This document shows positions 2,300-6,704 of a DNA stretch of 21,583 bases, piece by piece. The notes under the pieces are model-generated. The model was not told the DNA's origin. It searched no databases and was given only the letters and a program-made list of their open reading frames with translations. Source of the stretch: Candidatus Thorarchaeota archaeon (GTDB lineage: Archaea > Asgardarchaeota > Thorarchaeia > Thorarchaeales > Thorarchaeaceae); assembly GCA_016933575.1 (NCBI GenBank), contig JAFGAR010000055.1, positions 1-21,583 of the forward strand, given 5' to 3'. The stretch's first letter is position 1. Each line of letters opens with the position of its first letter. The position numbers and the translations under genes were made by a program.

Positions 2300-3940
2300 C
2301 TAGACTTGGAATGTGTCTCCGCCACGACCCTTGAATATGCCAAGGATGGAGTAGATTCCCACAAGTGCGACAACACCAAGTGCAATGCCAGTGTATGGCA
2401 TACCACTCATGATACCCCCAATGAAAAGACCACCTACATCAGGCTGGACAATGTATCCCTCAGTGTGTGAGTCCTTGTAGAAGGTTTCACTTTCATATTC
2501 GTAGGATATCTCAACAGGTGCGAAGCTATATCCACCTTCATTGGTGAACGTGACCTGATACTCGATTGTGGCACTCGCACCACCCGCAAGGGTGAGGACA
2601 GTATCTGTCGTAGTACCTGTCACTGACACTGTGGAGTATGTGGAAGCGAGTTCATCATCAGCGATCACAAGATTACCAATCGCCTCATCACCCTCATTTG
2701 TTACAGTTACCGTTACTGTCGTAGAACCTCCAGGAACAGTCGTATCTGGAGAGAACGTCCTTGCAATGGTTATGAGTGGTGGGAAGTCAGCCTCAAAGTT
2801 AATGATATACTCTGATTGCGTACCTAGGGCAGTCGCGTTCCAAATCACCATGTTCGACTCGTTGTCGTAGAAGCTTTGATTCGCGACATTGGGAACGATT
2901 GATGTCACATTCAAGTTCTCAGGGAGGCTTGTCAGAATCAATGAATTGGCAGTCGTAAATGGTTCAATTGAACCTGTGATACCAAACAAGTCGCCAACAT
3001 TGAGACTGGTTGAATCAGTGGAGAGCAGCTGCTCGCCCAAATAGCCAGCTGCTGCTATTGCAATGGGTCCTGTGACATTCTCTAAGAATCCAACGCCCCC
3101 ATCTTGAACAAGTGCCGGTAGAAATTCCTCGCCTCCTCCATCTCCGCTGCTAAAGGATTCGATTAGATCAACAAGATCAGCAATATCAGGTATCGCAAGG
3201 AGACCTGCCGCTGCAGCATTCGCATTTGAAAAGATGCTTGTATCAATGGCGCTTAGAAAGCCACTTCCGTCCATCACGTCAAAGATTCTATCTACAGCCA
3301 CTCCGAACTCATGTGTTTCCTGATAGATGAATACATCAATTGAATCGAACGGGAGCTCTATCTCGGCTTCAGGTGGAAATAAGCTCTCATCAATCCGGAT
3401 CTTGAATATCTCTACGAATCCAAATCCGAATTGTGTCTGAAGATGGTTGAGTATGCTTCCCATCCGTGCATTGGATGTCGCTTCATCCACATTCACAAAG
3501 ATATTGATTAGCAGATTGAATTCAGTTCCAATCATCTCTAGAATCGAGTCTGGATTGAATCCGCCATCTTGTGCTAATGCAAATTCACCACCTTCTTCCT
3601 CTCCACCGAAGAGGTCTCCACCCACAAGTTCGAGGACGATATCAAGAAACTCTCCATGGGTTGAAATCAGAGCCATGGCTATGCACCCTTCATACATCTC
3701 TGCATCCAGATCAAGATCATCTGACGGGATACCTAGTTGACCATAAATCGCTGATGGCACTCCTTGCTCGTCAATCATGGAGAACATTAGTTCTGCTCCA
3801 TTTGTCAGCAGCCCTTCAAACAAATCTTCTCCGAGGAATTCATCCTGTGCCAATGTATTCCCTGATGCTGCTACCAAAGGTGCGGCAACAAGGAAGCCTA
3901 TTAGAATAATAGAAATTGCGTGCTCATTCTTGAACTTCAT
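2300..3940 (-). CDS. Secreted, C-terminally membrane-anchored acidic surface (glyco)protein with an Ig-like (DUF11/CARDB-type) domain
   Basis: It has an N-terminal signal peptide (MKFK...hydrophobic...AAS) and is very D/E-rich, with several N-x-S/T sequons. A beta-rich segment (PGGSTTVTVTVTNEGD...LAGGASATIEYQVTF) precedes a C-terminal TM helix and short basic tail. SD-like GGAGTGA lies upstream. Confidence 0.7.
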   Translation of the reverse strand: MKFKNEHAISIILIGFLVAAPLVAASGNTLAQDEFLGEDLFEGLLTNGAELMFSMIDEQGVPSAIYGQLGIPSDDLDLDAEMYEGCIAMALISTHGEFLDIVLELVGGDLFGGEEEGGEFALAQDGGFNPDSILEMIGTEFNLLINIFVNVDEATSNARMGSILNHLQTQFGFGFVEIFKIRIDESLFPPEAEIELPFDSIDVFIYQETHEFGVAVDRIFDVMDGSGFLSAIDTSIFSNANAAAAGLLAIPDIADLVDLIESFSSGDGGGEEFLPALVQDGGVGFLENVTGPIAIAAAGYLGEQLLSTDSTSLNVGDLFGITGSIEPFTTANSLILTSLPENLNVTSIVPNVANQSFYDNESNMVIWNATALGTQSEYIINFEADFPPLITIARTFSPDTTVPGGSTTVTVTVTNEGDEAIGNLVIADDELASTYSTVSVTGTTTDTVLTLAGGASATIEYQVTFTNEGGYSFAPVEISYEYESETFYKDSHTEGYIVQPDVGGLFIGGIMSGMPYTGIALGVVALVGIYSILGIFKGRGGDTFQV

Positions 3941-3947
3941 ATTTACA

Positions 3948-4514
3948 TCACTCCTTTGGCCTTACAGTTGCTCCAATTATCCCAGCTACTATTACAACAA
4001 TGACCGGTGTGAACAACCAAATCAGAATGGGTGTAAGTATTGATAGGATATCCAGTCCACCACCAGACATTCCTCCAATCAAGACGAGTAATTCAGAGAA
4101 TATCGATTGGACTAGAGGGATACTCAACAGGTCAGTAATTGAGGTGCCTGGTGGAAGGGGCGGTAGTGTTCCAAGATCAAATCCTGCAGTAATCAATTGA
4201 TACACACAGAACACTAGAATCAGAATCACTGAGAGCCATGCAAAAAGACCTACAACAAATGCACCTTTCTTTGTTCCAGCTACCAAACCACCAACAAATC
4301 CAGCAGCAGCCCATATTGCGACCATAATCCAGTTGTTCAATGGATTGACCAACACTGCGTTGACCAACACCATCGTAGGACGCACATAGTTGCCTAGTTG
4401 AGGCGATAACCAGAGAATCAACGTATTATACCCATCAGGCAATAGGAACCATCCTCCTGCTAATACAATGAGGAGAGTTAGTAGCCATCCGAAGTATTTT
4501 GAACCAAAAGCCAT
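3948..4514 (-). CDS. Hypothetical integral membrane protein (4-5 TM, Gly-rich helices)
   Basis: Multiple hydrophobic helices with GxxxG motifs (AGFVGGLVAG, AGIIGA). The ATG at 4514 follows GGAGG and is preferred over the TTG at 4553. The stop lies 7 nt before the next gene. Confidence 0.75.
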   Translation of the reverse strand: MAFGSKYFGWLLTLLIVLAGGWFLLPDGYNTLILWLSPQLGNYVRPTMVLVNAVLVNPLNNWIMVAIWAAAGFVGGLVAGTKKGAFVVGLFAWLSVILILVFCVYQLITAGFDLGTLPPLPPGTSITDLLSIPLVQSIFSELLVLIGGMSGGGLDILSILTPILIWLFTPVIVVIVAGIIGATVRPKE

Positions 4515-4741
4515 AATTCTCACTGTCCTCCTATAAAATAGGAAATCTAACAATATTCTTTAACAGAATGTTATTAACCTATGCAGGATTTACGGTTTCG
4601 AAAAATGGAGGAGGTTCGGAACACAGAAATACTCCTTCTTCGAACGGAATTCGATGCACAGACTTTCCAAATCGTTCGCGAATTCGTGGGAAGGAGTTGT
4701 GTGTTTAGGCGCACATAAACCTTGATAGACAGTTGAGAGGT

Positions 4742-5095
4742 ATGAATGACGAAGATACACTGCAATCAGTATATGAACTAGTGCAATTGATATCCGCCCT
4801 GAATGATACTAGACGTTCAATTTTAGTTGCATTAGCCCACATCTACCCACGGAGTGTGTCTGGGGTGCAGCTAGGCCGTCTCATAGGCTACAGCGGAAAA
4901 TCTCGCAGTCTGTATAGAGGCGTTCTGTCCCATATGCAGGAGAATCAAATGATACTGATAGATCAACTAACGCCAAAGCTTTACGCAATTCGAATCAATA
5001 ATGAGCATCCATTGCTAACATTATTGGTAGATATGTGTAGGAAATTTGGTGCAGACGCTCGAAAGATCTATGAGAAATCTTTGGAGGAAGAATGA
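4742..5095 (+). CDS. Winged helix-turn-helix DNA-binding protein (putative regulator)
   Basis: The pattern NDTRRSILVAL...SVSGVQLGRLIGYS...LYRGVLSHMQENQMI followed by a beta hairpin (KLYAIRIN) fits a wHTH. ATG at 4742 follows GAGG. Confidence 0.6.
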   Translation: MNDEDTLQSVYELVQLISALNDTRRSILVALAHIYPRSVSGVQLGRLIGYSGKSRSLYRGVLSHMQENQMILIDQLTPKLYAIRINNEHPLLTLLVDMCRKFGADARKIYEKSLEEE

Positions 5096-5694
5096 GCTTG
5101 GATACCTTACTTGTCCGTGCAAAGGGTCTGTACAAGGACAGACAAAGGATAGCATTAGCTACCTTCATGATCGTCTTTGCGCTCACATTCTATGCATTCT
5201 ATGTACCAGGTATCTATAGCCTCACTGATGAAATCCCCAGCTGGTTCTCTGGTGGTTGGGCACAGGGTTTTGAGCTGGTTTATTCCTTCAATACAGTAGG
5301 CTTCTTCTTTGCGTTCGCATTGATGGCTTTTGCCTATGCATTCTGGTCTTGGGCATTTCTACCATCTCCTGCAACGATCTACACGATCGGCGTGCTTAAG
5401 GGTGTATTCGGCTCAGATATCCACATGAAGCAATCAATTGGTAAGAGATTCCATCTCACGACTCGAGAAGGAATTGAAATTGATGTTAAATGCAGGATAA
5501 AGCAACATGGCACTGATGATTGGTTCGTATACAGGATTCAATCGATGCCGTTATCTTCGCCAAAGTTGGATTCGATAGCTCTTCGGCATGGATTTTCCAA
5601 CAAAGCGGGAAGAATCGCCTCATGGGTGAGCTACGACGAGCTTCACAGCAGATCACTTCTCCTCCTTAAGGCTATACAGCTCGCTAGTGCGTAA
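5092..5694 (+). CDS. Hypothetical membrane protein (2 N-terminal TM helices + soluble C-terminal domain)
   Basis: Two aromatic-rich hydrophobic helices in the first 90 aa. ATGA overlap with the upstream wHTH gene. Confidence 0.7.
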   Translation: MSLDTLLVRAKGLYKDRQRIALATFMIVFALTFYAFYVPGIYSLTDEIPSWFSGGWAQGFELVYSFNTVGFFFAFALMAFAYAFWSWAFLPSPATIYTIGVLKGVFGSDIHMKQSIGKRFHLTTREGIEIDVKCRIKQHGTDDWFVYRIQSMPLSSPKLDSIALRHGFSNKAGRIASWVSYDELHSRSLLLLKAIQLASA

Positions 5695-5754
5695 ATCTGG
5701 TATGATACAAAGAACGTATTTCTATAGTTGATTCATTCCTAACTATGATTCTCA

Positions 5755-6150
5755 ATGTCGATACGAGTCAAACGAGCAATCGAAATCACCATGCTGAATT
5801 ATGATTGCATCACTGCCGCTAGTGCGATAACATATGAACGAAGGATTGGGTTTGCGACAGACAATATGCAGCTCTCACCAGAGGAAATTGACCAGATTGT
5901 AAGGGCTTGGAATGGTGATATCAGTCATCTAATGATCAAGCATATTCCATTCATCGTTGTATTGCACGATAAGAATGGAGTTGTAGCAGTCAATCCTGAA
6001 GGCGCCACAAGCCTCGTTGTTGGGACGGGAAAGGGAGTATGGTTCGTCTGTGTCTTTGTCCCGATGGACCAAGACAAGTTCGGCATAATGAATGCGTGTG
6101 TACAAGCAGCTAAGAATCTAGAAACCTCTGTATCGATTTTCGATATCTGA
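5755..6150 (+). CDS. Profilin-like protein (Asgard eukaryotic signature protein)
   Basis: 131 aa with the profilin element order: N-terminal helix, AASAITYERRIGFATDNMQLS (compare the Asgard profilin pattern AII..DG.I...TENW.IS), short helix, ISHLMIKHIPFIVV (compare ..L.IQGIKY.IV), VAVNPEGATSLVV (compare I.TNI.G.GH.L), a strand FVCVFV and a C-terminal helix ending AAKNL. Alignment is from memory of the family. Confidence 0.7.
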   Translation: MSIRVKRAIEITMLNYDCITAASAITYERRIGFATDNMQLSPEEIDQIVRAWNGDISHLMIKHIPFIVVLHDKNGVVAVNPEGATSLVVGTGKGVWFVCVFVPMDQDKFGIMNACVQAAKNLETSVSIFDI

Positions 6151-6156
6151 ATCTAT

Positions 6157-6603
6157 TCATGTTTTGGCGATGATAGGTCGTTGTTCTGATATTGTCCGTG
6201 CCACTATAGCCATCATTGCACCAATCCATCCCAATGATTGTGTCATTTGTGTCATTAGAGGCATAGCTAAAATTCCTGCCCATGCTAGTTGGACTAGGCT
6301 CATCACCAAGCTCATTGCGCCCATACCCATAGATACCATCACAAGAATTCTCCCTATCTCTACATGTCGTGTTGTTAATACTAACCCGCCTAAGATGACA
6401 CCAAGACCCCCAATAGCTGTTAGACCTGCAAGAATGCCCATGATCAATTCGAAGGTATAGGAGAAGGATTCTCCAAACAGTGAATTGATTCCCTCCTGTA
6501 GAGCAGGTAGATATCCAAGGGTGCCACTAACACCGGAAATGATCATTGCGGTCCCACCAATAATGCATAGCATTAGTGAGGTCCTATTATGAGATGATAT
6601 CAA
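6157..6603 (-). CDS. Hypothetical small integral membrane protein (about 4 TM, Gly/Met-rich)
   Basis: Four hydrophobic Gly-rich helices. The start is uncertain (TTG 6603 or ATG 6573). Confidence 0.7.
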   Translation of the reverse strand: MISSHNRTSLMLCIIGGTAMIISGVSGTLGYLPALQEGINSLFGESFSYTFELIMGILAGLTAIGGLGVILGGLVLTTRHVEIGRILVMVSMGMGAMSLVMSLVQLAWAGILAMPLMTQMTQSLGWIGAMMAIVARTISEQRPIIAKT

Positions 6604-6704
6604 TGTGAAGTGACCCTGGTTATTATCGTCTTTTAAGCTTAGCTCATGTTGCTTTGTGAGTTATGATAGGATTCTTGTAGTTTTTACAATTTGCGGTTTC
6701 TGGA

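Follow-up and report, generated by a model that had tools for sequence, protein, structure and literature searches.

The window analysed here, a 21,583-nucleotide stretch of Thorarchaeota DNA, carries a short forward-strand gene flanked by genes for small membrane proteins (Table 1). As the initial annotation had proposed, the open reading frame comprises 131 codons. It begins with ATG, and there is no in-frame start further upstream. The motifs that had been read from its translation are present (TDNMQLS at residues 35-41, VAVNPEG at 77-83 and AKNL at 119-122), and so is the hydrophobic tail VSIFDI at residues 126-131. A word-seeded HMMER search returned 92 homologues of 94-153 aa with E values of 3e-30 to 2e-66. 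Every named homologue is a Thorarchaeota 'hypothetical protein', and none of the 92 has a precomputed Pfam domain. We aligned 40 members of the family including the window protein; this alignment, and the third Thor profilin family that it represents, is denoted as A1. It contains 22 invariant columns and 30 more that are at least 90% conserved. Between the window gene and its nearest orthologues, dN was 0.08-0.14 and dS was saturated, which indicates strong purifying selection. The stretch at 5755-6150 is a genuine gene that purifying selection maintains. That it could be a chance open reading frame or a decaying pseudogene is suggested by nothing beyond the missing annotation, and this reading, whose probability is practically nil, is refuted by the conservation: it is at odds with the number of homologues, the invariant positions, the selection on the gene and the confident fold prediction described below.

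Table 1. Coordinates of the features around the A1-family gene (positions in the window)
Feature	Position	Strand	Remark
546-aa CARDB/DUF11-like surface protein and 201-aa membrane protein	2300-4553	-	pair diverging from the wHTH operon
120-aa putative winged-helix-like protein (wHTH)	4733-5095	+	stop overlaps the start of the 200-aa gene (ATGA)
200-aa membrane protein, upstream neighbour	5092-5694	+	stop 60 nt before the A1 gene
TATTTCT, TATA-box-like putative promoter element	5717-5723	+	38 nt upstream of the ATG
A1-family gene, divergent profilin-fold protein	5755-6150	+	131 aa, ATG start; stop codon within the coordinates
148-aa hydrophobic membrane protein, convergent downstream neighbour	6157-6603	-	syntenic in 27/27 loci

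The gene order of this neighborhood, with the surface and membrane protein genes on the reverse strand, the wHTH, 200-aa and A1 genes on the forward strand and the 148-aa gene again on the reverse strand, is kept in all 27 loci compared, from 14 genera. The conserved block also holds an ABC transporter and other unrelated genes, and the pair of surface-protein and 201-aa membrane-protein genes is syntenic with the wHTH operon across genera. The 120-aa protein is the best conserved of the neighborhood, with 69-92% identity; it matched no Pfam or NCBIfam family, and its sequence pattern suggests that it is winged-helix-like. The 200-aa protein matched no Pfam or NCBIfam family either. Its AlphaFold2 model (pLDDT 80.6) consists of long N-terminal helices and a C-terminal α/β domain of ~110 aa, for which Foldseek returned no match at E up to 0.001, while a wide VIA comparison found weak similarity (Z 7-9) to helical bundles and to folds like those of type III secretion chaperones. 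Invariant motifs of this protein are F-W-S-W-A-F-L-P-x-P-A, A-L-R-H-G and D-E-L-H-x-R.

In the spacer ahead of the A1 gene, the TATA-like element named in the initial annotation, TTTCTATA, does stand at 5719-5726, but the conserved part is TATTTC at 5717-5722, which only overlaps that octamer. Upstream sequence was long enough for comparison in 23 orthologous loci of many genera, and in 22 of these TATTT(C/T) starts 37-42 nt ahead of the start codon, within a spacer that otherwise shows no conservation. In archaea, the centre of the TATA box usually lies ~26 nt ahead of the transcription start. At this spacing, transcription is predicted to start ~8 nt before the ATG, so that the mRNA would be nearly leaderless, with a very short leader or none. 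The A1 gene is probably transcribed on its own from this conserved TATA-like element, to which we assign a putative promoter function. Two metatranscriptome runs of the same study contained no sequence on window positions 4700-6650; the same stretch is found in the probable source metagenome, on a contig of 127,832 bases at a depth of 21.

The AlphaFold2 model of the window protein, calculated with A1 as input, has a pLDDT of 92.9 and a pTM of 0.86, and its topology is H-E-E-H-E-E-E-E-E-H. The model shows the profilin arrangement of a seven-stranded antiparallel sheet with both terminal helices on the same face. Its seven strands include the three-strand motif which separates profilin from Roadblock and longin and which replaces half of the central helix of Roadblock (PMC10933270). 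In a Foldseek search against the PDB, the best match was Odin profilin (5zza_P, E 1.5e-9), followed by Loki profilin-2 and -1 (TM 0.83-0.84) and then ~45 eukaryotic profilins, where the profilin matches spanned E values of 1.5e-9 to 1e-4. VIA-align superposed the model on Odin profilin with a Z score of 18.6 and an rmsd of 1.7 Å over 119 of 119 residues, on the Loki profilins with Z scores of 17-17.8 and on eukaryotic profilins with ~15, giving 46 profilin entries at Z 15-18.6 over the full length of the model. The neighbors of the protein in the ESM Atlas are profilin clusters.

Since Roadblock/LC7 and longin proteins have a five-stranded core in common with profilin (PMC10933270), we considered whether the window protein is a small-GTPase regulator of the Roadblock/LC7 or longin type instead of a profilin. 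Roadblock/LC7 proteins such as Loki Roadblock3 (PDB 9JUE) have the terminal helices in common as well (PMC10933270), a Loki Roadblock3 chain was found at Z 12.3, and Roadblock clusters of the ESM Atlas reached TM scores of 0.62-0.66. However, the profilins score higher than this over the full length and Roadblock ranks only 47th-50th; in Foldseek, the first non-profilin is a Roadblock at rank 50 with an rmsd of 6.1 Å. Moreover, Roadblock/LC7 itself is a five-stranded α-β-β-α-β-β-β fold without the three-strand insertion and has a full-length central helix through which dimers form, in contrast with the seven strands and three-strand motif of the model. The sequence profiles match profilins only, and Pfam Robl_LC7 (PF03259) was not matched at E values up to 10. 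A Roadblock or longin identity is very improbable.

The comparison with Pfam Profilin (PF00235) that had been suggested earlier gave a divided answer. The match covers nearly the whole profile (residues 17-122 onto positions 15-122 of 127), but its score of 14.8 bits (E 0.032) does not reach the gathering threshold of 25 bits, and among the other 39 A1 members none reached E 1. When the same Pfam profile was calibrated on canonical Asgard profilins, it gave 25.8 bits for the thorProfilin type, 24.9 bits for the canonical profilin of another Asgard family and no match for the tandem partner of thorProfilin. As the thorProfilin type barely passes and its partner is missed, the Pfam cut-off is a weak guide for Asgard profilins. 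Searching all PDB sequences with the A1 profile, we found the structure of thorProfilin, 7PBH, at E 1.2e-6 and 32 bits (residues 17-122 onto 37-142), Loki profilin-1 at E 0.066 and Loki profilin-2 at E 0.29. An hhalign comparison of A1 with A2, the profile of the canonical tandem Thor profilin pair described below, gave a probability of 94.5% at E 8e-8. A single-sequence phmmer search of 1.8 billion representatives returned the A1 family alone, plus spurious repetitive giants. The initial annotation had named two outcomes that would speak against it, a roadblock, GAF or other fold and the lack of profile similarity to Asgard profilins; based on the predicted fold and the profile matches, neither is the case. 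The window protein is almost certainly a divergent profilin-family paralog.

Among solved structures, the best structural matches of the model are Odin profilin and Loki profilin-1 and -2 (PDB 5ZZA, 5YED/5YEE and 5ZZB; Z 16.9-18.6, rmsd 1.7-2.0 Å, 119-125 residues aligned, TM 0.79-0.86). They are similar to A1 in size and likewise have no N-terminal extension, but the identity is 13-18% and the profile match is weak (E 0.066-0.29), covering the N-terminal two thirds only. These profilins were crystallised with bound rabbit actin (Akil and Robinson 2018, as cited in PMC10933270). The best sequence-profile match is thorProfilin (TFG12995.1), whose NMR structure is 7PBH (bioRxiv 10.1101/2021.08.06.455371; PMC8410842); it slows the elongation of rabbit actin and binds polyproline weakly (PMC8410842). 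thorProfilin and A1 belong to the same phylum and fold (Z 11.9, TM 0.69/0.64) and have in common N37, the glycine of the β5-β6 loop, W96 and the AAK.L helix. They are nevertheless different gene families: the window protein has ~14-19% identity to thorProfilin, a 20-residue N-terminal extension is found in thorProfilin and not in A1, and an extra five-residue C-terminal tail is found only in A1. Eukaryotic profilins (PF00235) resemble A1 in fold and topology (Z ~15), and the Pfam match spans nearly the whole model, whereas A1 remains below the curated threshold and is without the aromatic polyproline platform.

The canonical Thor profilins were reached through weak second matches of the A1 profile in related genomes, which led to a tandem gene pair. 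The first gene encodes 126-128 aa of the 7PBH type (W-Q-S-N-N-W-D-L, V-K-Y-S-T), and its partner encodes 124 aa (W-Q-T-D-N-W, V-T-Y-K-R). The pair is present in 82 of 87 Thor-class genomes, including all 24 high-quality ones, nearly always as two adjacent matches to A2. The A1 family is present in 65 of the 87, which include 19 of the 24 high-quality genomes and 14 of the 17 genera, and is practically always single-copy. Over 301 Asgard genomes, the A1 profile scored 171-246 bits in the Thor family f1 only; in 225 other Asgard genomes outside f1 it scored at most 48 bits, on canonical profilins, so that the A1 family was not found outside f1 among the 301. In a maximum-likelihood tree, A1 forms a single clade (100/98 support) whose stem measures 2.2 substitutions per site, and the two tandem Thor profilins are sisters with 98/95 support. 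A1 lies outside the clade of the tandem pair and outside the canonical profilins of three other Asgard families; as a result of its long stem, the origin of the A1 family cannot be placed. The fast-evolving tandem partner of thorProfilin is similar to A1 in that it is unannotated, missed by Pfam and of similar size, but it is sister to thorProfilin, adjoins the thorProfilin gene and keeps W-Q-T-x-N-W and Y66, while A1 falls outside that clade and lies at another locus. Mean pairwise identities in the same 18 genomes were 58% for A1, 73% for the thorProfilin type and 43% for the partner. A search for longer, fused forms of the A1 family found none. As such, A1 is a third, strongly diverged profilin family of one Thorarchaeota family, apart from the tandem pair, and the description of the protein as a non-canonical paralog holds.

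The assembly itself contains a second intact A1 copy, on contig C166, with the same neighbors as on the window contig, C28. Collinearity between C28 and C166 extends over at least 13 consecutive genes, whose products are 45-78% identical in amino-acid sequence, whereas C28 is 74-92% identical gene by gene to G019, a genome of another genus (g9). The window A1 protein is sister to the G019 copy with 100/98 support, and the GC content of the window (0.45) matches that of the G019 locus (0.445) and not that of the C166 locus (0.388). Furthermore, other contigs of 44-46% GC (C150, C100 and C61) all shadow one and the same contig of 40% GC, and together with C28 and others they form a set of higher-GC contigs that shadow low-GC ones. 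The completeness of the assembly is 85.5% and its contamination 6.9%, and two intact strong copies are found in no other genome among the 65 A1 carriers. Contig C28 very probably comes from a second Thor organism that was binned with the main one, and in a mixed bin the two copies are orthologues, not paralogs. A segmental duplication, by which C28 and C166 would carry true paralogs of one genome, would agree with both contigs being in the same bin and both copies being intact; we consider it unlikely, as it runs against the level of identity of the collinear genes, the affinity of C28 to G019, the repeated shadowing by higher-GC contigs, the GC match, the contamination and the single-copy state of the other A1 genomes. 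A Thor actin gene is present in the assembly (contig C57). No Pfam Profilin match with an E value of 10 or less was obtained anywhere in the assembly, and tblastn found no canonical Thor profilins in it. Considering that all 27 other genomes of the genus have the pair, the incompleteness of the assembly is the simplest explanation for this.

To compare residues, the three Thor profilin families were aligned from the same 18 genomes. The two replacements pointed out from the window sequence, NW to NM and GIKY to HIPF, were both confirmed. The first characterises the family, as N37 does not vary among the 40 homologues and M38 is conserved to at least 90%, and the columns of N37-M38 hold an invariant N-W in the canonical Thor profilins. 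In the second, the aligned counterparts of H63-I64-P65-F66 of the window protein are G-I-K-Y in other Asgard profilins and V-K-Y in the Thor profilins. The Asgard signature, W-Q-x-x-N-W in β2 and the following loop and G-I/V-K-Y in β3-β4, is thus not found in A1, where N37 alone is kept, the signature tryptophans are F/Y33 and M38, and K-Y is P/S65-F66. The aromatic platform for polyproline on the N- and C-terminal helices is also not found in A1 by column comparison. Canonical Thor Y9, Y13, W34 and the tryptophan of N-W correspond to I9, M13, F/Y33 and M38, and the polyproline-site residues W53, V24 and Y28 of 7PBH align with F/Y33, R4 and A/T8, respectively. Such a platform is not universal, in that Loki and Odin profilins are without polyproline binding (PMC8410842). 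What A1 keeps is N37, the loop glycine G83, W96, an aromatic residue at position 66 and A-A-K-x-L of the C-terminal helix. Conserved features specific to A1 are R4, K6 and R7 in a basic N-terminal helix, a G-T-G-K-G-V-W hairpin, P-M-D-x-D-K ahead of the last helix and a five-residue tail S-[IV]-F-D-[IV] past the canonical C-terminus. The window protein deviates from the family at six of the 30 near-invariant positions (A8, A21, I25, V69, V79 and A114), and its terminal branch of 0.19 is tenfold longer than that of its G019 sister (L039:4001-4396; 0.019).

Based on these comparisons, we propose that the A1 protein is a small cytosolic profilin-fold protein that may still bind monomeric archaeal actin via the usual profilin face, composed of the three-strand motif, β5-β7 and the N-terminal half of the C-terminal helix. 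The aromatic platform for proline-rich partners has been lost, and the basic N-terminal helix with R4, K6 and R7 and the C-terminal tail S-[IV]-F-D-[IV] have been gained. The protein would then be an accessory binder of actin monomers whose second partner differs. We give this whole statement, a third profilin family with a changed platform and including actin binding, a probability of roughly 0.55. The loss of polyproline binding, which the replaced columns suggest, is better founded than actin binding. For the latter, the odds are about even, and it is putatively assigned from the predicted retained fold and the profilin-like constraint profile. Segment by segment, the constraint on A1 parallels that on the thorProfilin type in the same 18 genomes, being lowest in helix 2 and β3-β4 and highest in β5-β7 and the C-terminal helix (ratios 0.81-0.95 there). 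The three-strand region is the least conserved in A1, but likewise in canonical profilin, so that constraint cannot discriminate actin binding; the profile appears compatible with a retained actin face and is no proof of one. Against actin binding are the very long branch, which is typical of a change of function, the replacement of hallmark residues that all the other Asgard profilins compared have kept (W of N-W and K-Y of G-I/V-K-Y) and the dispensability of the gene, which is absent at an intact locus in genera g8 and g10. Of three profilins of Lokiarchaeum ossiferum, only one showed significant enrichment with Lokiactin (PMC13716822); Asgard profilin paralogs need not all bind actin strongly. 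Altered actin or lipid binding, as put forward in the initial annotation, is conceivable.

Alternatively, the profilin fold of A1 could have been neo-functionalised, in which case the protein would not bind actin. It would serve a membrane or regulatory partner as adaptor or regulatory subunit, making contacts via the basic N-terminal helix and the tail, possibly with the wHTH and membrane proteins encoded next to it. We regard this as possible yet doubtful. The long stem and the replaced hallmark residues would fit it, as would the position of the most conserved new features, which are found on the two terminal helices and in the tail. The order of the wHTH, 200-aa, A1 and convergent 148-aa genes, kept in all 27 loci of 14 genera, also points in this direction; however, the synteny there reaches from the surface-protein gene as far as the ABC transporter, so that gene order by itself tells little. 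The A1 gene is missing from genera g8 and g10 and from the sister family f2, all of which have the wHTH and membrane genes next to each other, and in G022 its former neighbors are just 24 nt apart. The gap in G079 gave a weak tblastn match to the A1 gene (E 2.7e-6) on the wrong strand. Genera g8 and g10 still have actin and canonical profilins. Because the neighbors persist without it, unchanged, the A1 gene is dispensable and synteny is weak evidence of a functional module. The A1 gene also comes with a promoter-like element of its own. Loki-type genomes have fusions of profilin domains with TrmB-type winged-helix regulators, so that Asgard archaea do use the profilin fold in regulatory contexts, but no such fused form was found for A1, and its constraint profile is like that of canonical profilin. 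If the neo-functionalised reading is true, A1 would be a non-actin profilin-fold family in archaea.

Profilins are eukaryotic signature proteins that have been used to argue for a regulated actin cytoskeleton in Asgard archaea. The Thorarchaeota have, beyond thorProfilin and its tandem partner, a third profilin-fold family. It is a conserved family with a remodelled partner-binding face, was lost in some genera and has escaped both annotation and Pfam. A1 therefore bears on whether Asgard paralogs divide labor, as eukaryotic isoforms do, or reuse the fold. Since A1 is missed by Pfam, counting profilin genes by Pfam or InterPro gives too small an Asgard repertoire. According to a passage of PMC13716822 that cites Akil et al. 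2021, Asgard genomes have up to five profilin homologues each; as several paralogs per genome are already known, A1 extends this picture and does not change it. The accessions TFG28156, TFG33588, RDE15346, NHI90254, TFH04653 and UCE09333 are not mentioned in the literature searched or in the text supplements of PMC8410842, and the A1 family may already be counted in Bioessays 2023 (10.1002/bies.202200119) or in Akil et al. 2021.

Several other actin and profilin genes were met in the course of the analysis. Actin genes of five Thor genomes from different genera (L104-L108, in G009, G016, G008, G007 and G003) contain a 30-nt insert with an in-frame stop, located at the same place in all five, after nt 1075, in T-F-Q-K-M-W. 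The insert holds a hairpin that has compensatory changes and is flanked by CCAG...CUGG, which makes it a candidate bulge-helix-bulge mRNA intron; the actin gene of the assembly analysed here (C57) is without the insert. The Loki-type family f9 has proteins of 400-412 aa with an N-terminal canonical profilin (S-D-N-W-D-I-S, I-K-Y) and a TrmB-type winged-helix regulator, and its genomes also encode profilins of ~203 aa with an 80-residue C-terminal extension. The loci of these fusions and extended profilins are L113:1534-2736, L115:1405-2607 and L114:551-1789, and also L109-L112, and the ESM Atlas clusters that match the f9 profilin proteins have 51-92 members. In the sister family f2, a 447-aa protein of G001 (L023:1233-2576, forward strand) has a C-terminal profilin domain at residues 338-444 and a sub-threshold MIT domain at residues 239-294 (26.4 bits, cut-off 30). 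From these matches, it is possibly a fusion of an ESCRT-interacting module with an actin regulator.
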